A stretch of 57,707 nucleotides of DNA from a virus (IMGVR_UViG_3300025276_000004:1-57707); one strand, 5' to 3'; shown: positions 11,898-54,539, counted from the stretch's first letter. Notes: a model not told the origin generated them from the letters alone. Made by a program: numbers and translations.

Positions 11898-11904
11898 TTT
11901 GTTC

Positions 11905-13694: not shown

Positions 13695-13718
13695 CTCTAT
13701 CCCCTATGTTGCATTGTC

Positions 13719-13736
13719 CCTATAAGGGACTTAGAG
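13719..13736 (-). promoter_or_regulatory. T7-like phage promoter (class L) upstream of terL
   Basis: CTCTAAGTCCCTTATAGG on minus strand, 25 bp from the terL start. Confidence 0.75.
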
Positions 13737-14115
13737 TGAATACTGTAGTATTTTTTAGAATTGTAGGTATCTGTAGGAGGTTTGGGGACACCCTCGGAGC
13801 TGAGAGAGACATAAGAATGACTTATTATTTCAGGTATACCCTTATTTAATTCAGTACCCCCCTATTAAGCTCTGTTAATCATTCAATTCAATAGAGATCC
13901 CTAGTCGGGATCAGGTTTCTTTAGTCTTTCTTAAGGGTGGGCTCTTAGAGGCTCCCTCAGTTGTCTAATCAACGTAGGTACTGTGAGGTTCCCTGAGAGT
14001 ATTAGGGATCTGAGAGGATCTCTAAGGGAGTCTAAGGGGGGTGTGATCACATAGACCTTAGCGAGACTGTTGGTGTACTGTAAGATACTGTAAGAGACAC
14101 TGTGGGGAACCTGTT
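13737..14115. other. Non-coding divergence region; probable physical genome ends/packaging or origin region
   Basis: No credible ORF; flanked by divergent class L promoters; short repeats TACTGTRRG and TCT(T)AAGGG. Confidence 0.55.
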
Positions 14116-14133
14116 CTCTAAGTTCCTTATAGG
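14116..14133 (+). promoter_or_regulatory. T7-like phage promoter (class L), rightward (phiOL-like position)
   Basis: CTCTAAGTTCCTTATAGG on plus strand. Confidence 0.7.
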
Positions 14134-14260
14134 AAGAAGTCCTCCAGTCCCCCCATTAGGTTACTATATATCTATCTATAGTCTATCTCTTAGAACTCTC
14201 CCAGGGCTTGTAGCAACTGTAAGGGTAGACACAACACTAGTCTCTGTATGGATAGTCAGT

Positions 14261-14283
14261 AATCTGCCCACGGGGGTCAGATT
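14261..14283 (+). promoter_or_regulatory. Hairpin motif H1 (candidate virion-RNAP promoter)
   Basis: AATCTGCCC-ACGGG-GGTCAGATT, 8 of 9 stem pairs, upstream of the first early gene. Confidence 0.7.
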
Positions 14284-14321
14284 TAGGAAGAATTAATTAT
14301 CTCTCTTGAAAGGAGAACACT

Positions 14322-14570
14322 ATGATTAAGCTTCCAAGACATACAACAGACTGGTTTGGCAAAACACTAACTCTCCAATGGACTGGTGGGTATGGACAAA
14401 TCTGCAACGAGAAGTTCTTCGTGGAATTCGAAGATCCATACTCACACTACGAAGGAATATGCTTCAGTGATGGTGAGGAATTAACAGAATCAAAGCTACG
14501 ATTCACTGCTATCTCAGAAGATAGTGAAATGATCACAGTGGTTTTGGTTGAAGATGGTAAAACATTCTAG
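14322..14570 (+). CDS. Early hypothetical protein
   Basis: 82 aa, GAAAGGAG RBS. Confidence 0.7.
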   Translation: MIKLPRHTTDWFGKTLTLQWTGGYGQICNEKFFVEFEDPYSHYEGICFSDGEELTESKLRFTAISEDSEMITVVLVEDGKTF

Positions 14571-14583
14571 AAAGGAATGAACT

Positions 14584-14790
14584 ATGGTATACTTATGTAA
14601 ACCATCACCTATCTCTGGTGAAAGTACGTGCATGACATTCGATATCAGTCAAATGGTATTCGATGATTGCTATGTTTCATGGTCAGAAGGCGCACTAATA
14701 CAGGATGCCTTTCCTATGCTTAATGCAGACGAGCGTGAGTTCCTTATGACAGGAATGACTGTCGCTGATTGGGATAGGGTGTTGTCATGA
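14584..14790 (+). CDS. Early hypothetical protein
   Basis: 68 aa, IQDAFPMLNADEREFLMTG, AAAGGA RBS. Confidence 0.7.
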   Translation: MVYLCKPSPISGESTCMTFDISQMVFDDCYVSWSEGALIQDAFPMLNADEREFLMTGMTVADWDRVLS

Positions 14791-14932
14791 TGGAACTATT
14801 ACTTCTCTTGGGAACCTTCGGGTTCTCAATCGCATGGTGCTTATTCTTATATGTACCTCTAGATTAAACTAGCAAAGGCAGTTGAGATTGCCTTTCGTAG
14901 TCTAATTTAACAACTCTTGAAAGGAGTAAACA

Positions 14933-15112
14933 ATGGCTAGTGAGGATGGCTACAGTATGACTGTGGTAATGCAAGAAATAGATGGAGGTAAAGTAACTAC
15001 TCTCTTCTATCGTCTTAATGATACTAACAATTTAATTGATCCAATCATTGAGGGTTGGAAAACTGCTGGGTATGACATTCTGTCTATCGGCTTTGTGAAA
15101 GGAAGTAGATAA
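14933..15112 (+). CDS. Early hypothetical 59-aa protein (not in ORF track)
   Basis: MASEDGYSMTVV..., GAAAGGAG RBS. Confidence 0.6.
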   Translation: MASEDGYSMTVVMQEIDGGKVTTLFYRLNDTNNLIDPIIEGWKTAGYDILSIGFVKGSR

Positions 15113-15114
15113 TA

Positions 15115-15360
15115 ATGAAAGACATGAACAGATTACGACTCAAGCTAACTCGTAACTACGAACTTTCTATAATTCAACCTAAAGAAACTATCACTATTGA
15201 GATAGCTCTGATAAATCCAGAAGGAGACATTGAAGAATTTTCATCTGCGTTGTTTGAAGAACCTGATCAAGTACATCAGAATCTATCAGCGCAACAATTA
15301 ATTACAGCTATCCACAGAGCTGAAGACCATATCAGAAGGAGTAACACATATGGCAACTAA
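15115..15360 (+). CDS. Early hypothetical protein
   Basis: 81 aa ORF. Confidence 0.65.
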   Translation: MKDMNRLRLKLTRNYELSIIQPKETITIEIALINPEGDIEEFSSALFEEPDQVHQNLSAQQLITAIHRAEDHIRRSNTYGN

Positions 15361-15460
15361 TAAAAACGAAGCTATTAAAGCTACTATGTCTAAGTATCCT
15401 GAAATGAATAAGGCAACTGCAACTTACTACGTTGAAGAAGTCTTGGGGTACTTCAAGTGA
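15350..15460 (+). CDS. Early hypothetical 36-aa protein (not in ORF track)
   Basis: MATNKNEAIKATMSKY..., AAGGAG RBS. Confidence 0.5.
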   Translation: MATNKNEAIKATMSKYPEMNKATATYYVEEVLGYFK

Positions 15461-15568
15461 TAGGGTGGCTATTCATAACCGCTTGGTTGGTCTTTTGCAT
15501 ATGGTATGCTTGGGATCACTATCAGGAACTAATAGGCAATCGTCCTAAACACTAAAGGGATCTCTTGG

Positions 15569-15591
15569 AATCTGACCACAGGGGTCAGATT
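15569..15591 (+). promoter_or_regulatory. Hairpin motif H2 (candidate virion-RNAP promoter) upstream of SSB
   Basis: AATCTGACC-ACAGG-GGTCAGATT, perfect 9-bp stem. Confidence 0.75.
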
Positions 15592-15635
15592 TTAAAAGAT
15601 TTTTTAATCTACATCCATATAAAAGGAATATAACT

Positions 15636-16139
15636 ATGGAATTCACTCCACGTAATTATTTGATCAAAGATGTTTATGCAGACTTCGCTAGGCTGTCCAC
15701 TCCTAAAGAGGGCTTAACTCCGGGCAAAAAGCAGTTTGAGGTAAAACTCCGCTTTAAGTCTAAGGAAGCAGCTGATGAAGCTGAGAAGCAACATCTTATT
15801 GTTAAGACTGATCCTCAAGGCGAACGCTATGTATCAGTCAAACGTAACGAGCTACGTGCCAATGGTGAGCCAAACGGGCCACCACGGGTTGTCAATGGTA
15901 ACAACCAAGAGATCGATTCCACAAAGATCGGCAATGGTTCTACTGTAAACGTCATCTTGTACCAGTTTGCTTACGATATGAATAACCGCAAGGGAATCTT
16001 CAGTTCTCTTACAGCTGTTCAAGTAACAGACCTCGTTGAGTACACTGGTGGTGCTAACAGCATGGACTTTGATATTGTCGGTGGTGGTACTGTTGCCCCT
16101 AGTGACAACGCTGGTGCTGGTGCTGACGAACTCTTCTAA
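15636..16139 (+). CDS. ssb: Single-stranded DNA-binding protein (T7 gp2.5-like)
   Basis: KIGNGSTVNV..Y, LTAVQVTDLVEY, DFD, acidic tail ending in Phe (ADELF). Confidence 0.85.
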   Translation: MEFTPRNYLIKDVYADFARLSTPKEGLTPGKKQFEVKLRFKSKEAADEAEKQHLIVKTDPQGERYVSVKRNELRANGEPNGPPRVVNGNNQEIDSTKIGNGSTVNVILYQFAYDMNNRKGIFSSLTAVQVTDLVEYTGGANSMDFDIVGGGTVAPSDNAGAGADELF

Positions 16140-16180
16140 CCCCTCAAGACCTGAGCAAGTCTATAAACTGCTTATTTATT

Positions 16181-16288
16181 ATTGTGAGTAGTCATCTAAG
16201 TACTTGTAGACCACATCCCAGTAGGGCAATGCTTCCAATAGGGAGATAGAACGTAGGTATCACACAAGATGTTCTGGCTACTCTCAAT
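16181..16288 (+). ncRNA. Candidate multibranch structured RNA
   Basis: ATTGTGAGTAGTCA pairs with TGGCTACTCTCAAT (13 of 14); inner CTTGT/ACAAG stem and two small hairpins. Confidence 0.4.
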
Positions 16289-16301
16289 AGTAAATTCTCA
16301 T

Positions 16302-16371
16302 ATAAACCCTAGCTGACGCCTTTGAACCCTTCCTCCTTTCAGGTTCATAGTCCAGCTAGGGTTTATTTTTT
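16302..16371 (+). terminator. Long hairpin plus U-tract, with an anti-SD-like loop
   Basis: ATAAACCCTAGCTG/CAGCTAGGGTTTAT stem, inner TGAACC/GGTTCA, followed by TTTTTT. Confidence 0.65.
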
Positions 16372-16432
16372 CTCAGAAAGGAATCCCCAAGGGGGGATAC
16401 TATATTTAAAAAGTCTTCAAAAAGACTTTAGC

Positions 16433-16455
16433 AATTCGCCCACGGGGGGCGAATT
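16433..16455 (+). promoter_or_regulatory. Hairpin motif H3 (candidate virion-RNAP promoter)
   Basis: AATTCGCCC-ACGGG-GGGCGAATT, perfect 9-bp stem. Confidence 0.75.
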
Positions 16456-16697
16456 TAAAAAGATTGCAGCTAAAGCTACTCTCTTTATTTCAAAAAGTTT
16501 CCATAGAAACTTTAAGGGTTCAAGGATCTCTAGAAGATCCTTGAACTCAAAAAGCTGGTGATTACCGACAAAAGGCACTTAGAATACCAGAGGCAATAAA
16601 TATTTCATATATAGTTTACTTACTAATGGCGCTGTACGTACTTATAGCAGTCATACTCAAACGACCATAACACAACTAGTCAGGAAAGGCTATCAAA

Positions 16698-16910
16698 ATG
16701 ACAACAGTAAATCCAATCGGACGTAGCAATTTACAATTTCGCCGCACAACAAAGCGGTATGGTAAACCAATAGGATCATTCTCTAATCACCAAGGATACC
16801 TTTCTGTCGCACGAGATGTAGCGTCAGGTCAATTCGTATCTCGGACTAAACTATCTATAGCTACTGTAGATCGTATTCGAAATGTAATCAAACTACGAGG
16901 TTTCAACTAA
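16698..16910 (+). CDS. Early basic hypothetical protein
   Basis: 70 aa, Arg rich, AGGAAAGG RBS. Confidence 0.65.
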   Translation: MTTVNPIGRSNLQFRRTTKRYGKPIGSFSNHQGYLSVARDVASGQFVSRTKLSIATVDRIRNVIKLRGFN

Positions 16911-17074
16911 TGGACAAACAAAATATCTTCTGGACAGCAGAAGGTGAAGTTGTAATAGAAATAGCTGGAAGGGCATTGATACTAAAACGAGCAGAAGCAG
17001 AAGCTCTGTTCGTAGATCTTGGTCATGTTTTACAAGACATGGCTGTATCTAATGACAAAGTGAATGATGGGTGA
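16910..17074 (+). CDS. Early hypothetical 54-aa protein (not in ORF track)
   Basis: MDKQNIFWTAEGEVV..., TAATG coupling. Confidence 0.55.
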   Translation: MDKQNIFWTAEGEVVIEIAGRALILKRAEAEALFVDLGHVLQDMAVSNDKVNDG

Positions 17075-17303
17075 CCTAGTAAACTTTGAAGATAGAAGAA
17101 GAGCTATTGAGTATCGTAGGATTGCCCAGCTCTTTAATGTTGTAGTCCACATAGGCACTAACGATGAATACGAAATCGACATGGAGTGCAATGAGGACTA
17201 CGACACATGGGCAGTCTTCATGGGTCTAGAATGTCTATACGCTAAATATGGAATCGAGAATGGGTTCCTTGGAGATGATGATGATAAAAAGGAAGATGAG
17301 TAA
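17064..17303 (+). CDS. Early hypothetical protein
   Basis: 79 aa, acidic. Confidence 0.6.
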   Translation: MMGDLVNFEDRRRAIEYRRIAQLFNVVVHIGTNDEYEIDMECNEDYDTWAVFMGLECLYAKYGIENGFLGDDDDKKEDE

Positions 17304-17469
17304 CTTCGATGTGACAATAACAATTACAAACACATTTAAACTTCCAGCTATTGACAAGGAGTCTGCTGTTCATCAAGCTATCGCACTGGGTATAGACGAA
17401 GTAATAAAAAATGCAGACTTCAGTTCATCAGTCAAAAAATCGGAGACAGATAATGACGGTTATAATTAA
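17296..17469 (+). CDS. Early hypothetical protein
   Basis: Likely start MSNFDVT at 17296. Confidence 0.55.
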   Translation: MSNFDVTITITNTFKLPAIDKESAVHQAIALGIDEVIKNADFSSSVKKSETDNDGYN

Positions 17470-17683
17470 TCCCGGAAGGGACGAAGTACAAGCAGTCTTC
17501 CTTAGGTCTGCACTAAAACTATCTCAAAAAGGTATCATGCCTAGTAAAGGTTTGACTAAAAAGAAACTAATGTCACTCGCATCTCACATCACAGGTAATG
17601 CTTACAAAAGAGGTCAATTAGATAATGCAATCTATGACCTGACATCTGTGATTGATGCAAACGAAACGGATATATATAACTAA
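17453..17683 (+). CDS. Early hypothetical protein
   Basis: Likely start MTVIINPG at 17453 behind GGAG; ASHITGNAYKRGQ motif. Confidence 0.6.
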   Translation: MTVIINPGRDEVQAVFLRSALKLSQKGIMPSKGLTKKKLMSLASHITGNAYKRGQLDNAIYDLTSVIDANETDIYN

Positions 17684-17694
17684 AGGGGAACCTC

Positions 17695-18189
17695 ATGCCT
17701 AACCATTGCTACCAGCAAGTCTTCCTTGAAGGCCAAACAGAACTAATTAGAGAACTATACAACAGTCTGGCATATGTTCAGCCACAATTCTTACAGACTA
17801 TTATGCCAACTCCAATAGAATTGTTTACTTCAAAAGACTGGTCAGTATATGACTGGCGAGTTGAAAACTGGGGTACTAAATGGGAAGTCGCAGAAGTAGA
17901 AATAACAGATACTTCTTGGGATTACTCTGGTAATATCATGCCTAGTTACCTGATAGGTGATAAGACAAAAGAAGTCTTGCAGAACAATACAACTTCTACA
18001 ATCAACTTCAATTGCTGGACTGCTTGGGGACCACCCACACCAGTCTGGGATAAACTCAAAAATCTAGGTGTGTTCGTAGATGCTGACTATCAGGACGAAG
18101 GAGGGATGTTTGAAGGTACATGGTTAGATGGTGTCAACGACTCATGGAACCCTGATGATGGAGAGGATGTAGAAGATGATAACAACTAA
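17695..18189 (+). CDS. DUF1281/YubB ferredoxin-like domain protein
   Basis: MPNHC start, YDWRVENWGTKWE, F..TAWGPP, Y.DEGG.F.G motifs. Confidence 0.75.
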   Translation: MPNHCYQQVFLEGQTELIRELYNSLAYVQPQFLQTIMPTPIELFTSKDWSVYDWRVENWGTKWEVAEVEITDTSWDYSGNIMPSYLIGDKTKEVLQNNTTSTINFNCWTAWGPPTPVWDKLKNLGVFVDADYQDEGGMFEGTWLDGVNDSWNPDDGEDVEDDNN

Positions 18190-18376
18190 TCAATGGGATG
18201 AAACAGTTGTCAAAGTTGAAATAGATCAATTAGATAATGATCAAATAGCTATGGTAACTGGGATATGTAGAGAAACCCTAGATAGACTTGATATAAATTC
18301 ATACTTTGACATGGAACTATCAATCATCCTCTTAAATAGAGATGCATTAGAAACCAATATAACAGAAAGTAAATAA
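18176..18376 (+). CDS. Hypothetical protein
   Basis: 66 aa ORF. Confidence 0.55.
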   Translation: MITTNQWDETVVKVEIDQLDNDQIAMVTGICRETLDRLDINSYFDMELSIILLNRDALETNITESK

Positions 18377-18377
18377 C

Positions 18378-19007
18378 ATGGCTAAAGAGGCTGTACACAT
18401 ATCTGTAATGACAGGTAAACTACAAGGGCTGAGAGCAATCAGCACGAACACTAAAACAAATAAATATTGTAAGACACAGCACGAACAAGCTGTGGCTAAA
18501 GATTCAAATAATATTTGCAAGGTATGTTACAGTCACAAAATGCTAGATGGTTTCCGTAAGAATATGGCACCAGCCTTGCAACGCAACTCAGACCTTCTAT
18601 CATCAAGACCTCTAGAACGTAGAGAAATACCAAGGATCAATGACAGTATATTCAGGTTCGATGCACATGGTGAGTTAATCAACCAGCAACACTTCGATAA
18701 CCTGATGGCAATCGTCATAGATAATCCTTGGTGTGTCTTTACACTCTGGACTAAAAGACCACACTATGCGTCTAACTATATAGATAAACATGGTAAACCT
18801 AAGAACCTAATACTGGTGTTTAGTAACCCACTCATGGGAAGTATCATGAGTAAACGTCCAAAACACTTTGATAAAACCTTCAACAATGTAATGGAAGATC
18901 AACACCTTGATAAACAAAACTGTACTGGGCAAAAATGCCAAGACTGCAGATTGTGTTATTCTTTCAATGATGTTCATACAATAGTAGAAAAAGTTAAGAG
19001 GTACTAA
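18378..19007 (+). CDS. GP88-like (radical-SAM-related) cysteine-cluster protein
   Basis: C...ICKVCY, FRFDAHGE, LWTKR, C-terminal C.GQKCQDCRLCY. Confidence 0.7.
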   Translation: MAKEAVHISVMTGKLQGLRAISTNTKTNKYCKTQHEQAVAKDSNNICKVCYSHKMLDGFRKNMAPALQRNSDLLSSRPLERREIPRINDSIFRFDAHGELINQQHFDNLMAIVIDNPWCVFTLWTKRPHYASNYIDKHGKPKNLILVFSNPLMGSIMSKRPKHFDKTFNNVMEDQHLDKQNCTGQKCQDCRLCYSFNDVHTIVEKVKRY

Positions 19008-19225
19008 TGAAAACAATAGTACACGTTAATCAACATATAATAAAAAGCAACAGCAAAACAGGTTCGAAAGATCCTGTCTTGACTGTGAAAACATATAACT
19101 CAAACACTTACACAAACAGAGTTAAAATAGATGGGCCATGCACTATTGTGTATAGCCCTGATAAACCTCTGTCATGTGGTGCAAAAGTATGGATAGAAAC
19201 ACAAGAAGAGGTAACCTGTGAATGA
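19007..19225 (+). CDS. Conserved hypothetical phage protein
   Basis: IVHVNQH.IK.N...PVLTVK..YSPDKPLSCGAKVWIET. Confidence 0.7.
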   Translation: MKTIVHVNQHIIKSNSKTGSKDPVLTVKTYNSNTYTNRVKIDGPCTIVYSPDKPLSCGAKVWIETQEEVTCE

Positions 19226-19557
19226 CTATGTATATGAATCAATATCAAGAACAAGCAATGAAAACTGCAATCTTTCCAGATAGCACAGACAACGAAGCAC
19301 TATCATACTTAACTATGGGATTGTGTGGAGAAGCTGGAGAAGTTGCAAACAAAATCAAGAAATGTATCAGAGATGGTAATGACTACACTGGTATCTCAGA
19401 GGAACTGGGGGATGTCCTCTGGTATGTTGCAGTACTCGCACGTTATCTAGAATGGGACACAGCAAAATCTCTAGAAGAGATTGCCGCTGCTAACCTATAT
19501 AAATTAGATAAACGTGCTAAAAACGGAACCTTGCAGGGTTCAGGCGATAACCGCTAA
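19222..19557 (+). CDS. mazG: MazG-like nucleotide pyrophosphohydrolase
   Basis: GLCGEAGEVANKIKK, EELGDVLWY, N..KL..R, GSGDNR. Confidence 0.9.
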   Translation: MTMYMNQYQEQAMKTAIFPDSTDNEALSYLTMGLCGEAGEVANKIKKCIRDGNDYTGISEELGDVLWYVAVLARYLEWDTAKSLEEIAAANLYKLDKRAKNGTLQGSGDNR

Positions 19558-19627
19558 TGATGGGGGTTTTGTTTGGATTTTGCATACTAATAGTAATTCT
19601 AGCAGCAAACATGAGATAGGATAACCA

Positions 19628-19774
19628 ATGCAAAATAAGCTTAATATTCTTGAAGTAATCGTAGCAGTAATGGAAGATCAAATAGATAACCTACACGAAA
19701 GGATCAAGTCTATTGAGATAGAGCTAGGAATACAGAAGATCCTCACAAAACAAAAGGAAGATACTCATGGCTAA
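19628..19774 (+). CDS. Hypothetical 48-aa coiled-coil protein (not in ORF track)
   Basis: MQNKLNILEVIVAV..., AGGA RBS. Confidence 0.5.
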   Translation: MQNKLNILEVIVAVMEDQIDNLHERIKSIEIELGIQKILTKQKEDTHG

Positions 19775-20063
19775 AAATCTATTAGGTAAGTCAAGGAACA
19801 TGCAAGACCCATACGCTATCTATAAAGGTGATGGCTCATTCGGAGAAACTGAAATGAGACTGCTAAAAACTTATCAACTCCCAAAAAACGAATCAACAAA
19901 TCAATATGCTCGTTGGTTCATAGCAGTTAAAACAGATGCAACCTTTGGTAGTTTTGACATGGGTGACAGTTACATTAAAGAAGCAACAGATGGTCTGCTA
20001 CTTACCTATGCTAGTCCAGAGTTCAAAGAACAATATCAAGCAGAAACAGGGAACCATCCCTAA
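19767..20063 (+). CDS. Hypothetical protein
   Basis: 98 aa, LLKTYQ..YARWFIAVK..FDMGDSY. Confidence 0.7.
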   Translation: MAKNLLGKSRNMQDPYAIYKGDGSFGETEMRLLKTYQLPKNESTNQYARWFIAVKTDATFGSFDMGDSYIKEATDGLLLTYASPEFKEQYQAETGNHP

Positions 20064-20205
20064 ATTATAACATACAGAGGTAATAAAACAATGACAGCAT
20101 TTATAGCAGCAATCGTACACGTAGGTATCGCCTTAGGAGTAGGTGTAGCCGTAATCGACATCAGTACAAATGTGATCACTACAATCTCGTCTGCCTTCTA
20201 AAACA

Positions 20206-20451
20206 ATGCCATTTACAATTGAAGAAGAGTTTCACCAAACAAGAATAGTAGTCATGGATGACTCCGGTGACGATCTCGATGTCGATTTGATTATAGAAAA
20301 CGCTGGCGAATACGAGGGATATGTATCGTTACGTCAGTACAACAATGATACTGAGTGCTACGAGATAATAACAATGTCACCAGACATGTTTAAAGATCTA
20401 ATAAAATCCTGGGATTCCCCAGCAGGGTTCCACGGACTACTATGGGAATAA
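20206..20451 (+). CDS. Hypothetical protein
   Basis: 81 aa acidic ORF. Confidence 0.65.
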   Translation: MPFTIEEEFHQTRIVVMDDSGDDLDVDLIIENAGEYEGYVSLRQYNNDTECYEIITMSPDMFKDLIKSWDSPAGFHGLLWE

Positions 20452-20490
20452 AAAAAGACCCCAGAGACTCACACAGAGTCTTTGGGGTCT
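20449..20490 (-). terminator. Intrinsic terminator for the terS transcript (possibly bidirectional)
   Basis: Minus strand AGACCCCAAAGACTC-TGTGT-GAGTCTCTGGGGTCT followed by TTTTTT. Confidence 0.75.
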
Positions 20491-20569
20491 AATAGTTACT
20501 AACCGACAAACCGCACTTGCTGGTTTTTTTTAAAACCGACAAAGCGCACTGGCAGTTTCTTGCAGAATC

Positions 20570-20962
20570 TTACACGATCCGCAAGGACTTGAGTTTACTG
20601 TCAAGCTCCTCATCAGAGAGAACTTCAGTGCCTAGCTCTTCTATTTGAAGCTCTCTGCGCTGTAACTTAGGTTGCTCATACTCTGCAATCTTTGATGCAA
20701 GATCACTAGCAGTATCAAATTCTTCCTCATCTAATGCTTTAAACATCAGGATCTTCAAGACATCTAAGGAGTTCATATCTACATGATCAAGTACATCTTC
20801 CTTATATTTCTTCCAGTCTCCCATGCTCATCTTCAAGGCTTGCCTAGCATCACTAGATGCTTTACGAGAAGCTGCGGATTTTAATTGCATCTCTTTAGCA
20901 TTGTCTTTAGTAAATGAGGGAGCTAAATTCTTGAGACTATTAGGATGTATTCCTTTGGTCAT
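20570..20962 (-). CDS. terS: Probable terminase small subunit
   Basis: HPNSLKNL N-terminus, A..IAEYEQPKLQR.E, LSDEELD C-terminus; has its own class L promoter. Confidence 0.65.
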   Translation of the reverse strand: MTKGIHPNSLKNLAPSFTKDNAKEMQLKSAASRKASSDARQALKMSMGDWKKYKEDVLDHVDMNSLDVLKILMFKALDEEEFDTASDLASKIAEYEQPKLQRRELQIEELGTEVLSDEELDSKLKSLRIV

Positions 20963-20989
20963 ATAAATTACCTCTTATAGTGCTAAATG

Positions 20990-21012
20990 AATTCGACCAC
21001 AGGGGTCGAATT
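20990..21012 (+). promoter_or_regulatory. Hairpin motif H4 (candidate virion-RNAP promoter) upstream of the replication operon
   Basis: AATTCGACC-ACAGG-GGTCGAATT, perfect 9-bp stem. Confidence 0.75.
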
Positions 21013-21035
21013 TTTAAAGAGAATAAGTATCTCTT

Positions 21036-21053
21036 CCTATAAGGAACTTAAAG
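21036..21053 (-). promoter_or_regulatory. T7-like phage promoter (class L) driving terS
   Basis: CTTTAAGTTCCTTATAGG on minus strand. Confidence 0.75.
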
Positions 21054-21065
21054 AAAGGGCATAAA

Positions 21066-21311
21066 ATGTCAGACATAGTAAAAGAACCATCACATTACAC
21101 AATGTGGAAGATAGAACCTATAACATTCATAATGGATAACCACTTACCCTTCCATACTGGTAACATCATCAAGTATGCCATGAGGGCAGGTTACAAAATC
21201 TATGAGGGTGAAGACGAAATAGGTTCAGAAATAACAGACCTTCGTAAAGTCATGCGGTATGCAGAGATGCGTATAGAACAACTCGACAGAAACATGAAAG
21301 ATTACATCTAA
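21066..21311 (+). CDS. DUF3310 family protein (T7 gp1.7/SaV-like)
   Basis: VKEPSHY..IEPI, GNIIKY..RAG.K, DLRK..RY. Confidence 0.8.
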   Translation: MSDIVKEPSHYTMWKIEPITFIMDNHLPFHTGNIIKYAMRAGYKIYEGEDEIGSEITDLRKVMRYAEMRIEQLDRNMKDYI

Positions 21312-21502
21312 TGGGTGAATTTAAGAAAATACAAACAGAAATTGATGAAATTGTAAGGCTAACGTACATGCTAGGTGACTTCTGTACATCAAAAGGTTTC
21401 ACAGAAATTGTGTATGCCAAATGTTTAGACGCAGATATTAACAGTGAGTACATGAATTACGCTAACAAAAGAATATCGGAGGTGTTATATGAATTGGATT
21501 AG
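21311..21502 (+). CDS. Hypothetical protein
   Basis: 63 aa, TAATG coupling. Confidence 0.55.
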   Translation: MGEFKKIQTEIDEIVRLTYMLGDFCTSKGFTEIVYAKCLDADINSEYMNYANKRISEVLYELD

Positions 21503-21767: not shown

Positions 21768-21770
21768 ATC

Positions 21771-22950: not shown

Positions 22951-22964
22951 AGAAAGGACGCATC

Positions 22965-30362: not shown

Positions 30363-30416
30363 AAATTAAAAACCCCCAAGGTATCATATAGATATCCTTG
30401 GGGGTTTATTTTTTTT
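30361..30416. terminator. Bidirectional intrinsic terminator between the two genome arms
   Basis: A-tract, AAACCCCCAAGG...CCTTGGGGGTTT stem, T-tract. Confidence 0.85.
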
Positions 30417-33400
30417 AGTGTCCGAAATACTGCATTGCGATAACCTGACCATTAGGTAGCGTGTAACCAAACTTCTTCAAGTCTTTCTTAAGCTGAATCT
30501 TGTTGGCGTTGGTTTGCTTAATCATCCTATTAAGTCTTGTGTTTAAACTGCCACCGTATTCTGGATCAGCTGAACCAAAGTAATAATCCATCTCACGAAC
30601 GAACATCCTAAGCTGCCTCACATTAGGTTTTGCAGGTGGGTTATGAACATTATACCCAACAACTTGCATCTTCAATCTAAGATCATTAGAAACGTCACTG
30701 GTGCTTACGCTATCACTGTTCATAAACTTACCGATACGAGATACTATATTAGCCATCTGTTTCTTACCAGTTTTTTTATTAACAGATACCTTTAGCATGT
30801 GTTGCATATACACAGCCTCATTAGCTGTAACCTCTGCGCTGTCATCTAATTTCGACATCTTCTCGTTGAACCTTTTAGTAGCAGCTTCTAAAGATATCTT
30901 AGCTTGCTCTAGATAGCTCCAATTGAGTGTAGCTTTCTCCCAGTTCTTGTTGACTTCCTCTAACATAACATCATAACCATTAGCATCCATCTTGAATGCG
31001 TCATAGATTGTATGCATATAAGGGAGTCCACCAGAAGCAGCTGTTAATCTTTTAAAAGACTCACCACTAGCCGTCATCATGACCACCGCCGCATCAATAG
31101 CTTGGATAGGGGCAACCGCAGAGCCACCATACGCAAGCTCTCCGGGAATCTGTTTACCATCTTGGTTTTTTGGTGCAGCCGCAGTAGCTTCTTTATTGTA
31201 AGATGCAACTGTAACTTTTTCAAACTCACCTTCTGATAAACTCTGAGGGCTTAACTTGTAAGTGGACATGTCAGCATTGTCATATCCTGTAGAAGCTTCT
31301 CCACCTATATGTATTTGCATACCGCTAGGTCCAGTTATTATAAAAGGCTCATTCATCATTGCGTGTTTAGCAGCGATAGCCCTCATAAGAGATCTGGCTT
31401 CTATCGGTTCATCACCTAATACTTCTTTAATAGATTTAGCATACCTTGAGTTTAAGGCACCAGCCAGTTCAGGTAATCCACTGTCAGTATCAGATTGTTT
31501 GTAAGCTTCTGCCGCATTCGCTAAATCTAATTCAAACTGAGTTGGACCTACCAACCCTGCTTCCTTATTCTGTCGAATATTCGTCTGCCTAATTACCTCA
31601 ATAACTTCTTGGATATATTTACCAAAGCTTTCAATCTCTTTACCATACCCAAATGTCATGATAGTATACTTGGCTAAGTCACGATTAGCAAAAACTTCCA
31701 TAGCTATATTGTCCATAGACGATATCTTTTCTGGAGCTAAACTCCATCCCTCCGTAAAGATACTCTCAGAGGCAAGACCTATAAGCCTGTCCCTCATGTC
31801 ACCATTGTCTAAATTAGATATCCCTTGTGATCTCATGACACCTGTTAAGAATGCTGTATCAGACTTGCCCAATAGCATAGCATTACTTGCAGGTCCATTG
31901 GTCTTACCATCTATGTAAGCGTTCAAGTAAGTTGTAAAGCCTGTGTTAGTCACACCATTTTTAAAATCCATATACTTTTTGAATTCCATAAGAGCATCTA
32001 TATAAATAGTAGCATCATCACCATTCTTTGTGATCAACTTAATAAGACGCTGGTCTGATTCAGACTCTGGATTAAGATTAAACCCATTGACTTTTGGAAA
32101 CGCAGGGTTGTCTAAAGGTACACCATTAGTTATTGCTTCTATAATATTATCATAGTCAGTGTCTGATATTGCCATCAACGATGTCAACCTAGCACCATAC
32201 CCATATAACTCATTTGATTTTTGAGTTAATAAAAAGTCCCTTTGATCTGGTAGGTAGGTATCACCAGCTTGATTTAAAACTGTAGCAGTCTTACCTTTAA
32301 TCTCCGCTTGTGTTGAGCCAGCTACAAATGTCTGAGGGATTAAAAGCATTGCGAACATTTGACGTAGGTTTCTTTCTTGCCGACTACCAATCTTTATATT
32401 AACTGGATTAACACCCCTTGTCGCAAACCTAACTTGCTTGGAAGTTGTAGGATTGAAATGTGACTGTTGTGGTGTAAGTCTTCCTTGATAACCTTGTATG
32501 TTCCAAGACAAATAGTTTGCACTAGCATGGTCTTGAGCTAAAGCTCTGACCTCATTAGCTAACTTGTTACGCTTCATGTTCATGTTACCTTCAGGATCAT
32601 ACACTCTTTCCTTAAGCTTTAACCTTGCGTCAGCTTGGAACCTACGATCTTGCATGGATTTAGACGCTGCAAACTTATCCAACGCAGTTGAACCAACACC
32701 ACTGATCTCAGCCTCCCAAGCTTGTGTATCATTACTTGCTAAAATATTTAGAGAAGTTGCCATAAGTATTTTCATTCTCTGCTTGTCAACTACTTGAGCA
32801 ATACTGGAAAGATTTTTTATAGCCTCTTGCATCATGAAGCCCATCTTCTGACCTGACTTACCACCAGATATGTATCTAGCTACGTTACGTCCTACGTCAG
32901 TCTTACTGATATCATTCTCGTTCTTAGCTTTCAAAGGTCTGACCAGCTGCCTAGGAAAAAACTTCTTCCTTTCTAATGAACCCAACTCCATAACAGCTTC
33001 CCCTTGAGGGGTCAGTGCGTATACAGTTTGCCTATCTTCTCCTGTAAACTTTCTAACTAACTCAGGGTTAGCCTCAGCCCACAGGTGTTTGAACGCTGCA
33101 CCTAATGTCTCTGCTTCCCTAGTCTCTATCCTCCTAGCCTCTTGATACAGAGGGTCTCCTTCTGGAACCCCTTGAGCTTTAAGTGTAGCGTTCTTCGCAC
33201 GGATGTATTCAAGATGTATCTCTTGACCTATCATGTTATTGCCAGTTGTTTGCGTAACCTTAGAGAGTGCCGCAATAGGCGCTCCCTTTTCTAGTAACGA
33301 CTCCTGACCCATAGCTTCTTCAAGGGCATCCTTAGTCTGTTGTGACTCATTACCTAAGATATTGAACATAGCGTTCTCAACTACAAGTGATGCAACCTCA

Positions 33401-34116
33401 GTATACATGGGGTTAGGTATCTTAAATCCAGAAGGGTTAGTAGTAATGGAGTCATTACCTGCCCGACTAATAGCTGAAAGTAAATCACCTTCAGAGTATT
33501 TAGATATCTCAGTAGATAACTCAGGGCCTACCACACCAGCCTTAACTGCTGTGTAAGCTGATGTACCATGCCCACTAAGACCTATACCTAAGATACCTTG
33601 TTCAACTAAAGATGTCATTTTGTCAGCACGTTTCTGAATGCCACCATCTGTGTATGTCTCAGAATTAGCAGGGACTCTCCTAAATATCTTAGGCTGTAGG
33701 ACAACCAGTCCATCTTCATCCCGCTGAACTTCTTTCCTGTCGTACTCATCCCTTGTCGCACTCTTAACGTAGTCGAGAGGTCTGTTAAAAACATCCCTAA
33801 CTTCAAACCTAGGGTCAGAAGCAGGTCCTGTCACTATCTCTGTATCTAACGCATCGACTGCTATATCTTGACCAAGCGCATCAGCTGCTTCCTCTGGAGA
33901 AAAATTTGTAATAGCCTCACTGAGGGACTGTTGAGGGGTAGGTTGAGAGGTAGGTTGAGATTGCTCTACCATATCATCAGCAACTTTCTGAGAGAAATTA
34001 AAAGAGCCTTGAGAGTTACCCCCCTCAAGACCCTCAAGACTACTCTCTATCATACCTCTCTCTTTTAACTTCTCTACTGGAGTTAGTATTTTTGAAATAC
34101 TGGGTATAGCCATCAA
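30415..34116 (-). CDS. Second single-subunit RNA polymerase, probable virion-packaged RNAP (N4 vRNAP-like), RNAP-2
   Basis: GYQGRL..FNPTTSKQVR, motif A YIDGKTNGP, motif B RDLAKYTIMTFGYG (R-x3-K-x7-YG), motif C TIYDAF; last gene of the internal-virion cluster. Confidence 0.85.
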   Translation of the reverse strand: MMAIPSISKILTPVEKLKERGMIESSLEGLEGGNSQGSFNFSQKVADDMVEQSQPTSQPTPQQSLSEAITNFSPEEAADALGQDIAVDALDTEIVTGPASDPRFEVRDVFNRPLDYVKSATRDEYDRKEVQRDEDGLVVLQPKIFRRVPANSETYTDGGIQKRADKMTSLVEQGILGIGLSGHGTSAYTAVKAGVVGPELSTEISKYSEGDLLSAISRAGNDSITTNPSGFKIPNPMYTEVASLVVENAMFNILGNESQQTKDALEEAMGQESLLEKGAPIAALSKVTQTTGNNMIGQEIHLEYIRAKNATLKAQGVPEGDPLYQEARRIETREAETLGAAFKHLWAEANPELVRKFTGEDRQTVYALTPQGEAVMELGSLERKKFFPRQLVRPLKAKNENDISKTDVGRNVARYISGGKSGQKMGFMMQEAIKNLSSIAQVVDKQRMKILMATSLNILASNDTQAWEAEISGVGSTALDKFAASKSMQDRRFQADARLKLKERVYDPEGNMNMKRNKLANEVRALAQDHASANYLSWNIQGYQGRLTPQQSHFNPTTSKQVRFATRGVNPVNIKIGSRQERNLRQMFAMLLIPQTFVAGSTQAEIKGKTATVLNQAGDTYLPDQRDFLLTQKSNELYGYGARLTSLMAISDTDYDNIIEAITNGVPLDNPAFPKVNGFNLNPESESDQRLIKLITKNGDDATIYIDALMEFKKYMDFKNGVTNTGFTTYLNAYIDGKTNGPASNAMLLGKSDTAFLTGVMRSQGISNLDNGDMRDRLIGLASESIFTEGWSLAPEKISSMDNIAMEVFANRDLAKYTIMTFGYGKEIESFGKYIQEVIEVIRQTNIRQNKEAGLVGPTQFELDLANAAEAYKQSDTDSGLPELAGALNSRYAKSIKEVLGDEPIEARSLMRAIAAKHAMMNEPFIITGPSGMQIHIGGEASTGYDNADMSTYKLSPQSLSEGEFEKVTVASYNKEATAAAPKNQDGKQIPGELAYGGSAVAPIQAIDAAVVMMTASGESFKRLTAASGGLPYMHTIYDAFKMDANGYDVMLEEVNKNWEKATLNWSYLEQAKISLEAATKRFNEKMSKLDDSAEVTANEAVYMQHMLKVSVNKKTGKKQMANIVSRIGKFMNSDSVSTSDVSNDLRLKMQVVGYNVHNPPAKPNVRQLRMFVREMDYYFGSADPEYGGSLNTRLNRMIKQTNANKIQLKKDLKKFGYTLPNGQVIAMQYFGH

Positions 34117-37100
34117 TCGTTCTCCTTATAATTCCAGCCACCACCAGTTAAGAAACTGGCTGCTCGTTTGTTATTGTCAGTCAACGGCCCAATTAAAGGT
34201 GCTGATTTCAAGCCTTGGTAGACAGCTCTTTCCACATCTCCACCAGCAAGATTCATTCCAGCATCGGCAAGCCTTCCAACGTACCCTAAACTAGGACTCT
34301 CTCCAGTTGCTTGATTGTATATCCAATCTCCAATACCATTAGACCTTTGACCATAAATGGGGGCAACCATGTCAATAAGTCTTTCACCTGTACCAGCTAA
34401 TCCTGATGCAAAAACACCACGCCTAACGTACTCTGGGGTATCCAAGTATGGGTTACCTAACGTACCTTGATCGTCATCATCATCGTCAAACTTTATTAAG
34501 TCCTTCATAGCCTGAGAGAAAAACCCTAGAGCTATCATAGTAGACATGAGTACAAATGTATTGTACTTCATTTGAGGTGTACCACGTTTAAGATAATCAT
34601 TCCACATACGAGGCAATTGATTTGCTGTGAATGTAGATATGAAACCTTGGAACTGTGTGAACAAAGCATACCTAGGATCTTGGTACAACAGTGGTCTATT
34701 AGCAGCTCCGGGAATTGGGATAGCTTGGTTAATAAAATTAAATGTAGCTTCCTTAATTGTTTGTTCCCAAAGTGCCTTCTCTTCAGGTGTTAAACTGTTA
34801 ACTCCACCTTTAGCGTTCTCAACTTTGTATTGAATGGCAACGAACTGTTCTACTGGGACACCTAAAGATCTTAATTTCTGTTCAGCCTCTTGAGCTTCAC
34901 GAGTAAACTTATTATTCTTTTTGTTACCACCATTAGATTCCCTTTCTATAACTATTCCAGTCTCAGGATCAAACAGTGTACTCTCAGCGTACTCCGTATC
35001 TCCAAGGATCTTAGCGTTTATCTGTATGAAATCGTAGGCCATTGCCCCACGAACCGCACGAGTGAAGTCTGTCCATGCTGTTAAACCAGTAACCCTAAAG
35101 AACGCTTCCATAGCTGTTCGTCTATTGTCATTGACCTCACTAACACCTGCAACAGTTGCGGCACCTACGTCCCATTGGTAGTAGCCAAGCTCAACCATCA
35201 TCCTTTCACCTTCAGTCCCAGGATTCCTTTGCATAAGAACATCTTCAATGTCAGCTTCAACTTTTTCTAGTTGAGGTATAAACTTCTCAACAAACTCCCT
35301 AGTTATAGACTTAATGCTTCCATTCTTACCAAAAATCTGTTCATTACTAAGTGCGCCTTGCGTCATAGCCAACTCAGGTAGAGATGAAAATGTAGCAAGA
35401 GGTAATGCAGATAAAGTCATCCAGAACATAGCACTCTTTTGAAACCTCATAAGTTTCTTTCCAGCGTCTGTCTTAGGTCTATTGTAGTTACCTGATACTG
35501 CTTCTAGAATATCTCTAGTTTTAAAAGCAACCTTCGCAACCAACTCCCTAGACACGCCTTCTTCTAACATGTTGTTTAATATTTCAGAGAAGACTTCCCC
35601 ATCCTTACCTACATACTGCATCTGAGTAGTGTATCGTGCAGCAGACTTAGCTGCGTTAGCTACATTAGCAAAGATATCTCTGTTATAGAAGTCCTTGAAA
35701 GCATCTTTCTCTGAAAGGTTCATAGTTCTTTTCTGATGAGAAGACGGGTTCAAAGATCCGACATTAGATTGCATAGCTTCACCAAGGCTAGTGACTGTAG
35801 GGTTATCTATAATGTTGTCAACTATTCTCTTAGCTTCTGCAGAGTCTATGTTACTAAACTCTGACATAAGGGCTTGCCTAAATCCTTCTTGATTAGCTTG
35901 AACAGCTCCTTTATCTAGCGACTTAAATTTGTGCAGATAGTTAGTAACATTCCCCATCTCAGAGCCAGCATTAATCTGATCATCTCTCATCTTGTTGCCA
36001 AGCTTTATTAACTCATTACCAATAAGGACTATCTCAGCTCTTTGTGCAGTACCTTCAGGTATCAAATCACTATTAAACTCACCTGTCTTAGAGTCTGTTG
36101 CCTCATTAAGAACACTGTAAATCCTATCACTTATCTCAGCTTTTTTCCTAGTGCTGTGGATACCAAGGAATGATTTTAAACCAAACCTTTTATAAACCTT
36201 TGAAGGTAAGGGAACCATATTCTTATACTCAGTTACCTTATGATGTTGAGCCGCTTCTAATCCAGCCCCACCATGAAGCGGAGTTAATAGTCCACCTAAT
36301 ATAGAAGCACCTGCTCTAGCAGATGCAGATATCTTAACAGCTTCTTTCCATGCATTTGTAACACCCCCTTGCCAAAGACCTGAGATGTTCATTAATTTAT
36401 TTGTTCCAATCTCTGAGAAAGGCTTACTGGATTCATTGGCTACATGTTCTTCTGCAAGATCATTGATAGTTATAGGTCCATCATTAGGCACTTGCATACC
36501 ACTACCTACAAGCATAGAGTCATACGCTCTCTTACTAAGTGAATTATTTTCACGTTTCCTGTTGGCTATCTTGTCTCTCAAACCTGACAGAACTTGAGGA
36601 ATACTCCTTACAGTACCATACTTCTGTATCTCGTCTTGTTTATATTGCTCTGTCTCTGTATCACTAATAGGATCTCCGAACCTAGCTGCAGCGTCCATCC
36701 ATCCAACTTGATTAGTAACACTTCCGGGAATACTAAACGTACCACCTAATGCAGTACCAGCGACAGCTGCGTTAGCTAACCTGTCTTGAAACTCTTCCAT
36801 GTCAAAGACTTTATCTGAGCCTAATACAGCAGCACTGTATCCAATAGCTTCCTGACCTACCTCGGTAAGTCCTTCAGTTACAGAACCAACACCAACACCA
36901 CCCATAATTCTTTTAGATGCTGCTTTAAATGTTAACTGTTTCTTTGCAATGCTTTCAGCTTCTTTTGCAAAAGCACCCACACTTTGATCAGCTGCCTCAC
37001 GAATTATTTGCTTGGCCTCATTGAGAGTTACTTGGTTTAGTAGGGCATATTCTTTTGGAATATCTTCTGCTATAGCTTTTGCTGGGTTCTTTCGGAACCC

Positions 37101-38240
37101 TCCAAGACCCTTGAGTCCAAACCTATCAAGGATAGATTGAGCAATACCAGATCCAATGGCTAGTGCTGCAGATTTATTATCATTGTCACCCTCCATGTCA
37201 TTCCATGTCTGACCTGCGTAAAGGCCCATTGGAAGGGAGAAAGATAATCCCATAGTAGGTGCAGCTGTAAGAGCTGCGGCGGCTGTAGCTGCCATGTAGG
37301 GCAGTGAGAGAGCCATCGTACTTCCTAGGTATTCAAATGCATTAGAAATACTTTCAACATCCTTATAGTCATTAATTATATAACCATAGTCTTGCATCTT
37401 AGCATTCTGTCTTGCTACTCCATCTTCACCCCAAGACTCTAACCCTTCCAAGCCTGTCCTTGCACCTAGGAGATTTGCAATCCCATATGCACTTTCACCT
37501 ACACTCATCCAGCCTTGTTCCCAAGCATCTGAAACAGGATTAAGCGACTTGTTGTTGAGGCTCACACCATAATGCTCTGTGTCTACAGAACGTATAAAGT
37601 ACTTGTCTATTTGAGCTTCAGCTTGTTTACGTGACATGCCTTTACTATCCATGAAGTAATCTATGTAACGCATACGCTCTGCTTCGTTAGACAATGCAGA
37701 CCTCATACCACGTTGCTTAGATCCTTCAGCTCGTTCTGCATTCTCAATATCAAAAGCTGCTTTATCAAATGCAGTGGTGTTATAACTACCTCCATAGAGT
37801 TGGCTATCTCTTTCACCTTCAGCTTGAAGGGCACGAATTCTATCATCCTTAGATGTAAAAGCTGTGTTCTCTACAGCACCGGACTCAAGTAGTCGAGTAG
37901 TAAAGCTGTGACCACTACTGTTCACAAGCTGAACCATCTGACGATTACCTTGACCTTTAGCTAACTGAGGAGACCCATCAGGGTTAAACAGGGGCTTAAC
38001 ATTAGTAAACCCCTGTTCATTTGCAAGCTTAGAGATTATATCAGTAGTCGCTTGACCACCAGCAGTACCTTCAGAGAACCCATTGTTACCTAAATACTTA
38101 GATACCTCTGCGCTGTTATACCCCTCAATCCGATAGTTTGGGCCATCGGGGTTGTTAAGAGTGTCACCATCTATAAATGTATAGTTAGTTCCAGCTAAAG
38201 TATTGGGTTGGTATGACTGAATACTTTCACGTAATCCCAT
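34113..38240 (-). CDS. Large internal virion (ejection) protein with an N-terminal thermonuclease-like segment
   Basis: 1375 aa; IDGDTL..YRIEGYNSAE; EGLTEVGQE and LFTQFQGF motifs resemble large phage ejection proteins. Confidence 0.7.
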   Translation of the reverse strand: MGLRESIQSYQPNTLAGTNYTFIDGDTLNNPDGPNYRIEGYNSAEVSKYLGNNGFSEGTAGGQATTDIISKLANEQGFTNVKPLFNPDGSPQLAKGQGNRQMVQLVNSSGHSFTTRLLESGAVENTAFTSKDDRIRALQAEGERDSQLYGGSYNTTAFDKAAFDIENAERAEGSKQRGMRSALSNEAERMRYIDYFMDSKGMSRKQAEAQIDKYFIRSVDTEHYGVSLNNKSLNPVSDAWEQGWMSVGESAYGIANLLGARTGLEGLESWGEDGVARQNAKMQDYGYIINDYKDVESISNAFEYLGSTMALSLPYMAATAAAALTAAPTMGLSFSLPMGLYAGQTWNDMEGDNDNKSAALAIGSGIAQSILDRFGLKGLGGFRKNPAKAIAEDIPKEYALLNQVTLNEAKQIIREAADQSVGAFAKEAESIAKKQLTFKAASKRIMGGVGVGSVTEGLTEVGQEAIGYSAAVLGSDKVFDMEEFQDRLANAAVAGTALGGTFSIPGSVTNQVGWMDAAARFGDPISDTETEQYKQDEIQKYGTVRSIPQVLSGLRDKIANRKRENNSLSKRAYDSMLVGSGMQVPNDGPITINDLAEEHVANESSKPFSEIGTNKLMNISGLWQGGVTNAWKEAVKISASARAGASILGGLLTPLHGGAGLEAAQHHKVTEYKNMVPLPSKVYKRFGLKSFLGIHSTRKKAEISDRIYSVLNEATDSKTGEFNSDLIPEGTAQRAEIVLIGNELIKLGNKMRDDQINAGSEMGNVTNYLHKFKSLDKGAVQANQEGFRQALMSEFSNIDSAEAKRIVDNIIDNPTVTSLGEAMQSNVGSLNPSSHQKRTMNLSEKDAFKDFYNRDIFANVANAAKSAARYTTQMQYVGKDGEVFSEILNNMLEEGVSRELVAKVAFKTRDILEAVSGNYNRPKTDAGKKLMRFQKSAMFWMTLSALPLATFSSLPELAMTQGALSNEQIFGKNGSIKSITREFVEKFIPQLEKVEADIEDVLMQRNPGTEGERMMVELGYYQWDVGAATVAGVSEVNDNRRTAMEAFFRVTGLTAWTDFTRAVRGAMAYDFIQINAKILGDTEYAESTLFDPETGIVIERESNGGNKKNNKFTREAQEAEQKLRSLGVPVEQFVAIQYKVENAKGGVNSLTPEEKALWEQTIKEATFNFINQAIPIPGAANRPLLYQDPRYALFTQFQGFISTFTANQLPRMWNDYLKRGTPQMKYNTFVLMSTMIALGFFSQAMKDLIKFDDDDDDQGTLGNPYLDTPEYVRRGVFASGLAGTGERLIDMVAPIYGQRSNGIGDWIYNQATGESPSLGYVGRLADAGMNLAGGDVERAVYQGLKSAPLIGPLTDNNKRAASFLTGGGWNYKEND

Positions 38241-38263
38241 TATAATCTCCTTGAAGTTTGTCT

Positions 38264-54533: not shown

Positions 54534-54539
54534 AATTTG

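Follow-up and report, generated by a model that had tools for sequence, protein, structure and literature searches.

As far as the searches showed, the available parts of the literature describe the recognition of extruded DNA hairpins by a virion-delivered RNA polymerase (RNAP) for N4-like phages (Schitoviridae) only. In the accessible text of one such study, the early promoters of N4 are described as inverted repeats around a GC-rich center, with stem bases that are partly conserved and partly exchangeable as long as they pair, together with an A-run that serves as a "molecular ruler" and a +1 C on the template (PMC4496689). The virion RNAP (vRNAP) of N4 is encoded in an operon of three ejection proteins, according to the part of a second study that was available (PMC13434306). 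Here, four 23-nucleotide (nt) hairpins are analyzed in the genome of a phage from the IMG/VR database, IMGVR_UViG_3300025276_000004:1-57707. This whole stretch of 57,707 base pairs (bp), referred to below as the window, is a complete record with a 152-bp terminal repeat. With a probability of roughly 0.6, the four elements are N4-type early promoters with a new geometry, found in phages of the CRP-7 type and read by RNAP-2, a divergent single-subunit RNAP that is encoded in the late arm of the same genome.

The locus shares several features with coliphage N4, its early promoters P1-P3, and its polymerase gp50. In both systems, a GC-centered inverted repeat with conserved and compensated stem bases precedes the early genes and is separated by a fixed-length A/T spacer from a G (C on the template), which in the window is the candidate start. 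The template-strand hairpin, the active form in N4, is here suggested indirectly by a mismatch bias in the sequences. Both genomes encode a divergent single-subunit RNAP (the polymerase module of RNAP-2 comprises ~1000 amino acids (aa), compared to 1106 aa for N4 mini-vRNAP), both place the polymerase gene among large ejection-type virion proteins, and both have a second, T7-like RNAP that comes from early transcripts. In contrast, the distance between the loop center and the conserved G is 18 nt here and 11 nt in N4, and the gp50 of N4 and the Schitoviridae is a protein of ~3500 aa with N-terminal (ejection) and C-terminal (encapsidation) domains, whereas RNAP-2 is a stand-alone protein of 1233 aa. 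A comparison of RNAP-2 with N4 vRNAP gave no sequence-level match, and the window genome is unrelated to the Schitoviridae at the DNA level. The late genes of the window, unlike those of N4, seem to use T7-like promoters and not the host RNAP.

The T7 group offers a second point of comparison. Like T7, the window encodes a T7-like RNAP (RNAP-1) and carries a TCTAAGTTCCTTATAGRGA motif as its probable promoter. However, T7-type promoters are not palindromic, do not covary, and do not vary within one genome, whereas the 23-nt hairpins do all three. The nearest cultured phage is Roseobacter phage CRP-7 (MK613349), to whose polymerase RNAP-1 is 35.7% identical. The CRP-7 genome, of 58.1 kilobases, resembles the window in that its early/replication arm ends in a T7-like RNAP and is convergent with giant genes of 1235, 1368, and 1223 aa. 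The accessible text of the CRP-7 paper describes one RNAP only, ORF30 (PMC6918029).

Four hairpins head the early gene clusters

The gene map of the window consists of a minus arm (1-13694), a plus arm (14322-30362), and a second minus arm (30415-57707). The plus arm encodes small unknown proteins, a gp2.5-like single-stranded DNA-binding protein (SSB), MazG, thymidylate synthase, a family A DNA polymerase, an exonuclease, a primase-helicase, and RNAP-1, and is organized in four clusters (14322-15555, 15636-16139, 16456-20451, and 21066-30362). An earlier note on this DNA had placed four 23-nt hairpins of one orientation at 14261, 15569, 16433, and 20990, and had described them as heading every early and replication gene cluster. 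All four are found there on the plus strand, and each of the four plus-strand clusters has one in front. Hairpin 1 (14261..14283, loop ACGGG) heads the first early cluster and lies 38 nt from the next open reading frame (ORF). Hairpin 2 (15569..15591, loop ACAGG) is positioned 13 nt past a stop codon and 44 nt ahead of the gene for the gp2.5-like SSB (15636-16139, plus strand). This gene makes up the second cluster. A terminator-like hairpin that carries a T run (~16304-16371) comes after it, and then hairpin 3 (16433..16455, loop ACGGG), 242 nt from its next ORF. Finally, hairpin 4 (20990..21012, loop ACAGG) lies 53 nt ahead of the replication cluster that begins at 21066.

The degenerate motif AATYYGMCCACRGGGGKCRRATT has four exact matches in the window, compared to 0.00 expected from 100 shuffles; the scan also returns four minus-strand rows, in which the same palindromes are matched with 3 mismatches. 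The core CCACRGGGG occurs in four copies, all on the plus strand, compared to 0.33 expected, and 0/100 shuffles reach four. Neither scan gives a copy in the late arm, so that for this motif the reported absence from the late arm is confirmed. The stem of 9 bp that had been proposed for all four elements holds for hairpins 2-4 (9/9 pairs) and not for hairpin 1, in which eight of nine positions pair and pair 7/17 is a C.T mismatch. When hairpin 1 is folded with ViennaRNA, the top of the stem is shifted and a T is bulged. As single-stranded DNA, either strand of the elements folds at -6.7 to -10.1 kcal/mol, with z values of -3.6 to -5.2.

The 242 nt that follow hairpin 3 (16456-16697) contain no convincing ORF but do contain strong stem-loops, among which is a near-perfect long hairpin at ~16520-16550. 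Such a stretch might serve as a structured leader or encode a small RNA; it has no Rfam match, and an Rfam search of the whole window gave 0 matches.

The hairpin is under selection for pairing in related genomes

Relatives were gathered from IMG/VR via a DNA polymerase search and a hairpin pattern scan, and six complete ones were analyzed whole. The pattern scan returned 59 stretches, a number to which no chance expectation is attached and which may include some chance matches. Four close relatives (G001, G002, G005, and G006, with DNA polymerases 89-91% identical to that of the window) contain 4, 4, 3, and 3 elements, respectively, all of which are co-oriented with the early arm. Three elements of these relatives are contained in short predicted ORFs (110-112 aa or less) that are taken to be spurious. 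When the loci were oriented by the DNA polymerase gene, 50/50 hairpin matches were located on the DNA polymerase strand.

The compensatory stem changes that had been noticed between the window copies recur on a larger scale in the relatives, across which 9/9 pairs are changed on both sides. With complementarity kept, the lower stem is found as AATCTG, AATTCG, AATCCG, GATCTG, GGTTCG, AATCGA, AATCAG, and AATTTC. The 5-nt loop, which had been described as conserved in the window (ACRGG), is kept across the relatives as ACRRG, and the GC-rich top of the stem is likewise conserved. A T7 class II pause signal was considered from the ATCTG present in two of the four window stems and was rejected, as the commonest stem of the relatives is AATCCG.

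The strength of pairing was evaluated in a set of 64 distinct sequences, which was selected for at least 7/9 Watson-Crick pairs and a loop fixed as AC..G and therefore leans towards pairing. In this set, 93.8% of stem cells are paired, compared to 71.5 +/- 1.0% in shuffles, and 100 cells are doubly changed, compared to 19.4 in shuffles, with 0/500 shuffles reaching 100. When the partner strand is slid by one to three columns, pairing falls to 22.6-61.8%. In a filter-free check, every match to AAT..G.CCAC.GGGG.C..ATT was collected, which yielded 17 distinct 23-mers. The free positions of this pattern are Watson-Crick paired in 15/17, 14/17, and 10/17 cases (pairs 4/20, 5/19, and 7/17, respectively), where chance would give a quarter; pair 7/17 is also frequently unpaired across the relatives. 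Based on this covariation in relatives, the hairpin is a structure under selection.

Covariation also bears on the idea that the elements are sites for a regulatory, cruciform-binding, or replication protein, as an operator, an origin, or a priming signal. The outer AAT/ATT and the inner CC/GG show the conservation and symmetry expected of a site for a dimer, and all four copies lie in regulatory intergenic DNA. However, the variable middle positions stay complementary, which a sequence-specific dimer would not need, and the asymmetric loop, the single orientation of all 50 matches, and the spacer and G on one side only are those of a directional signal. A protein-binding site of this kind is thus regarded as very unlikely.

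A more distant clade, typified by G004 (DNA polymerase 64% identical), contains the variant A[TG]GCC....ACAAG....GTC[AC]T. In this variant, the 9-bp stem and the 5-nt loop, here ACAAG, are kept, the inner stems differ but are compensated, and a constant C.T is present at pair 4/20; the spacer and the conserved G are kept too. Single pattern matches were observed in two further records, G009 (85% complete) and G008 (13% complete), neither of which has an RNAP-2 match. The G009 match is without the T/purine spacer and the conserved G, and the G008 match has a different loop, ACCGG. A loop census on 37 loci that were retrieved with single-protein RNAP-2 queries, all from the same phage group, gave no further hairpin family.

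In G003, another of the complete relatives, the early-arm intergenic regions 14104-14302, 20279-20551, and 21561-21743 contain repeated AACCGACA and ACCTACAT words. Two hairpins with 10-bp stems, 8-nt loops, and compensated inner stems were also observed in this genome.

A fixed spacer follows the stem, and mismatches suggest a template-strand hairpin

The T and A/G-rich tract that had been reported past the stem proves to be one to three T followed by purines; it is a constant 6 nt in length, and a conserved G comes next. For hairpin 1, this spacer and the G span 14284..14290 on the plus strand, with the G at 14290 as the candidate +1; the equivalent candidate positions for hairpins 2-4 are 15598, 16462, and 21019 on the same strand. 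Both hairpin families have exactly six A/T-rich bases between the stem and the G, either T1-3 plus purines or CAAWAA, and the lengths of the T-run and the A-run trade off (TAAAAAG, TTAAAAG, TTTAAAG). At alignment column 36, at least 90% of the 64 distinct sequences have this G, and these sequences were chosen without use of the downstream sequence.

To assign a strand to the structure, mismatches were tallied in 23 distinct elements that were picked by loop and downstream signature and have at least 6/9 pairs. Among the 207 stem cells, 18 are non-Watson-Crick. Read on the coding strand, these are A.C/C.A in 9 cells, C.T/T.C in 5, G.T in 2, A.G in 1, and T.T in 1; read on the complementary strand, the same cells are G.T/T.G in 9, A.G/G.A in 5, A.C in 2, C.T in 1, and A.A in 1. 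The mild G.T or G.A mismatches amount to 14/18 on the template strand versus 3/18 on the coding strand, and a like trend is seen in 27 sequences. This bias suggests that the hairpin forms as template-strand DNA and not as an mRNA structure; an mRNA helix is disfavored because it should show the reverse bias. In addition, no minus-strand promoter is evident near hairpins 1-3, and based on these two observations a template-strand DNA hairpin is the simplest reading.

The alternative at this point is an RNA-level signal on plus-strand transcripts, such as an attenuator or terminator for a phage RNAP, an RNase III/E site like those of the T7 early region, or a stabilizing stem-loop. The elements would give stable stem-loops followed by one to three T, hairpin 2 comes shortly after a stop codon and is terminator-like in a simple terminator scan, a plus-strand T7-like motif at 14116 would direct transcription through hairpin 1, and covariation alone cannot separate DNA from RNA. 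In the plus sense, however, the mismatches are mainly A.C and C.U, with G.U in only 2/18, which is the opposite of what an RNA helix tolerates. The elements also do not qualify as intrinsic terminators: their tails are A-rich with no U-tract, and the scan passes one of the four (hairpin 2). They are quite unlike the evident terminators of this genome. For example, a GC-rich hairpin between A and T runs (30370..30417, no strand assigned), which separates the convergent plus arm and RNAP-2 gene, looks from its sequence like a bidirectional intrinsic terminator of the ordinary form. Hairpins 1 and 4, moreover, sit in divergent regions, and a terminator role misfits them because there is no co-oriented gene upstream of 14261 or 20990. 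Finally, it is not obvious what a terminator would gain from a conserved G at a fixed spacing. Taken together, an RNA-level signal is considered unlikely.

A second, small inverted repeat (AAGAGA ... TCTCTT) is found past the conserved G at 21013-21045 and in many elements of the relatives. It would place a stem-loop right at the 5' terminus of the putative transcript.

RNAP-2 is a single-subunit RNA polymerase

The gene for RNAP-2 (30415..34116, minus strand) is the last of the late arm, and its product is the candidate virion polymerase. It is adjoined by the genes for two giant virion/ejection-type proteins (34113..41842, minus strand), of 1375 aa (matching a virion structural protein in PHROG) and 1192 aa (containing a phage lysozyme domain). 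RNAP-2 matches PHROG 414, "RNA polymerase", with an E value of 4.3e-7; it matches no Pfam family and falls short of the gathering score of PF00940 (RNA_pol). Neither sequence nor profile searches of the PDB gave a match, nor did tblastn against cultured phages; the nature of RNAP-2 became evident from its structure alone. An AlphaFold2 model of residues 230-1233 has a mean predicted local distance difference test (pLDDT) score of 90.9. With this model, Foldseek retrieves T7 RNAP (E 4.0e-15), mitochondrial RNAPs, and N4 mini-vRNAP (E ~1e-13). VIA-align superimposes RNAP-2 on the T7 elongation complex with a Z of 28.1 and a root-mean-square deviation (rmsd) of 4.9 for 535 aligned residues, and on the N4 mini-vRNAP promoter complex with a Z of 25.9 and an rmsd of 6.4 for 711 aligned residues, the widest coverage obtained. 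For the modeled protein, these Z values do not decide between T7 RNAP and N4 mini-vRNAP as the relative.

In an alignment of 79 sequences, residues D507, K587, Y595, and D810 (alignment numbering; full-length positions are 229 higher) are invariant. They lie inside the blocks YIDGKTNG, RxLNKxTTMTFGYGKE, and IYDAF, which, as judged from the consensus, correspond to motifs A, B, and C. Since these catalytic motifs are intact and the fold is that of a polymerase, RNAP-2 is genuinely an RNA polymerase of the single-subunit type. A library of 1.84 billion proteins contains 251 family representatives at E <= 0.001, and the relatives measure 1100-1300 aa. For the 120 relatives listed in a second search, "hypothetical protein" is the only name that any source gives, and precomputed Pfam domains are absent throughout.

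Homologues of RNAP-2 are present in 6/6 other complete relatives and in two partial genomes. The co-occurrence of motif and polymerase, which the earlier note had put forward as a check, is seen in five of these six genomes, four of which carry 3-4 elements of the same family and one of which carries 2 elements of the variant family. In the close relatives, RNAP-2 and its two giant neighbors share 31-59% identity with those of the window, compared to 82-91% for RNAP-1, DNA polymerase, primase-helicase, terminase, and portal. Such fast divergence across 30415-41842 is as expected of ejected proteins.

A separate T7-like motif fits RNAP-1

A 20-bp T7-like motif, which reads CTCTAAGTTCCTTATAGGGA when written towards the genes that it faces, is present in five copies in the window, each of which is intergenic. 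The plus-strand copy (CTCTAAGTTCCTTATAGGAA, 14116..14135) points into the early arm and is located 125 nt upstream of hairpin 1. The other four are on the minus strand: the copy at 13717..13736 points at the terminase gene, that at 11903-11922 at the terminase arm, that at 21034-21053 (back to back with hairpin 4) at a minus-strand gene of 130 aa, and that at 50526-50545 at ribonucleotide reductase and the structural arm. The motif ends in TATAGGGA, and all five copies are syntenic in the four close relatives, with almost no sequence change (5/5 close genomes with the window). It is absent in G003, and the single match in G004 is weak and lies within an ORF. With TATAG at its end and purines after that, the motif looks like the T7-group promoters (double-stranded, ~20 bp). 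RNAP-1, a 764-aa T7-like RNA polymerase (27806-30100, plus strand; Pfam RNA_pol 5.8e-54), is encoded by the last large gene of the hairpin-headed plus arm. Because RNAP-1 is T7-like and the motif is T7-promoter-like, the two fit each other, and the copies of the TCTAAGTTCCTTATAGRGA motif are probably RNAP-1 promoters.

The roles of the two polymerases might also be reversed, such that the hairpins are promoters or promoter-proximal signals of RNAP-1, perhaps with a cofactor, and RNAP-2 uses the TATAGGGA motif or has another role. N4 RNAPII needs the cofactor gp2. Four of the five window copies of the T7-like motif could form a 5-bp stem and a 3-nt loop, which is the N4 geometry, but this palindrome is not taken as a hairpin signal because it is not kept in relatives (0/5 perfect in G001, for example). 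Conservation of the element tracks RNAP-1 over RNAP-2 in the clade that shares it, and the hairpin and the T7-like motif change together in distant clades. On the other hand, the RNAP-1 gene lies inside the hairpin-headed arm, so that some other polymerase would still have to act before it, and the region 13600-21200 shows no enrichment of sigma-70-like sites (12 versus 21.1 +/- 4.4 in shuffles). The TATAGGGA motif resembles T7-group promoters, heads late genes, and fits RNAP-1, and an injected RNAP-2 that used it would switch the late genes on from the start. A reversal of roles is therefore judged quite unlikely.

Proposed mechanism and points against it

In the proposed mechanism, the template (minus) strand of each element would form a 9-bp hairpin with a 5-nt loop after DNA entry. 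RNAP-2, made late and probably delivered from the virion with its two giant neighbors, would recognize this hairpin, and transcripts would begin at a set distance beyond it, probably with the conserved G seven nt past the stem. The four plus-strand clusters would thus be expressed by RNAP-2, yielding the small early proteins, the gp2.5-like SSB, functions in nucleotide metabolism, the replisome, and, as the last product, RNAP-1. Using the five double-stranded T7-like promoters, RNAP-1 would go on to transcribe the late arms and would also transcribe the early arm again. In this scheme, we infer the extrusion at the DNA level, the recognition by RNAP-2, the start site, and the packaging in the virion, and the pairing of the hairpin with RNAP-2 instead of RNAP-1 is made by logic. 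The proposal of the earlier note that the hairpins are RNAP-2 promoters is thus upheld in part: the selected structure, the early placement and orientation, the template-strand bias, the identity of RNAP-2 as a real polymerase beside giant virion proteins, and the separate motif for RNAP-1 all argue for it, and the steps just named would complete it.

Several points weigh against this assignment to RNAP-2. As had been anticipated, the measured geometry is unlike that of N4, with a 9-bp stem and a 5-nt loop (coding ACRRG) here compared to 5-7 bp and 3 nt. In addition, the center of the template loop is a pyrimidine, whereas N4 vRNAP needs a purine (-11). In CRP-7, the only cultured relative, the protein in the RNAP-2 position (gp33, 17859-21566) is of nearly the same length (1235 aa) but has no detectable sequence similarity to RNAP-2 (BLASTP E value 0.27) and no PHROG match, and the hairpin list and intergenic regions of this phage contain no clear counterpart of the hairpin family. 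G003 is complete and has an RNAP-2 homologue, and scans of it found no 23-nt hairpin of the early family. The element is well conserved in genomes where RNAP-2 is only 36-45% identical and RNAP-1 is 86% identical, and for this reason its conservation does not point to RNAP-2 as its reader. Packaging of RNAP-2 in the virion is probable from gene context, that is, from its place among giant virion proteins. The 18 mismatch cells behind the template-strand bias are not phylogenetically independent, and strand-biased mutation could contribute to them; the terminator-like flag on hairpin 2 also has to be counted here. Nine metatranscriptome runs include small shares of the region, and the four that were examined consist of sparse, short Logan contigs with a depth of 2-6 that carry no 5' or 3' end information; the candidate start sites are placed from sequence. 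One of the RNA contigs (20749-20997) stops inside hairpin 4 and is uninformative on transcript ends.

Other features of the genome

In the first minus arm, the terminase is encoded at 12042-13694 and an SU10-type portal at 8778-10997 (Pfam 1.1e-123). ARAGORN found 0 transfer RNA genes in the whole window. A 452-aa gene at 1286-2644 contains 9-nt periodic repeats (window positions 1808-2524) that are possibly collagen-like, and the gene of the 1192-aa lysozyme-domain protein contains three 36-nt tandem copies (window positions 40781-40904). A second hairpin family is seen in the minus-strand reading at 51840-51868, 54506-54534, and 56513-56541, with a stem of ~9 bp and a 6-nt loop, followed by GACAG. 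Its members are placed just upstream of three paralogous tail-fiber-like genes, inside an 86-nt repeated leader, and their 3' arm, ACAGGGTCAGA, resembles the loop and 3' arm of the early hairpins.

Implications for hairpin promoters in marine podoviruses

A broader proposal, which has about an even chance of being correct, is that marine podoviruses of the CRP-7 type follow a transcription programme that is free of the host polymerase and uses two phage single-subunit RNAPs. One of these would be a stand-alone "mini" virion RNAP, represented by at least 251 sequence clusters, that reads template-strand hairpins with a 9-bp stem, a 5-nt loop, and a 6-nt ruler. These phages would form a second lineage of this kind outside the Schitoviridae, with stems and polymerase diverging clade by clade. 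If this is true, a second hairpin-promoter lineage would make it possible to test by comparison how the shape of DNA is recognized by single-subunit RNAPs, and would supply a small, orthogonal pair of promoter and polymerase for single-stranded templates. It would also give a function to a large metagenomic protein family that, where the source gave a name, is named only "hypothetical protein", and would explain how infection starts without the host RNAP in an abundant group of marine podoviruses.

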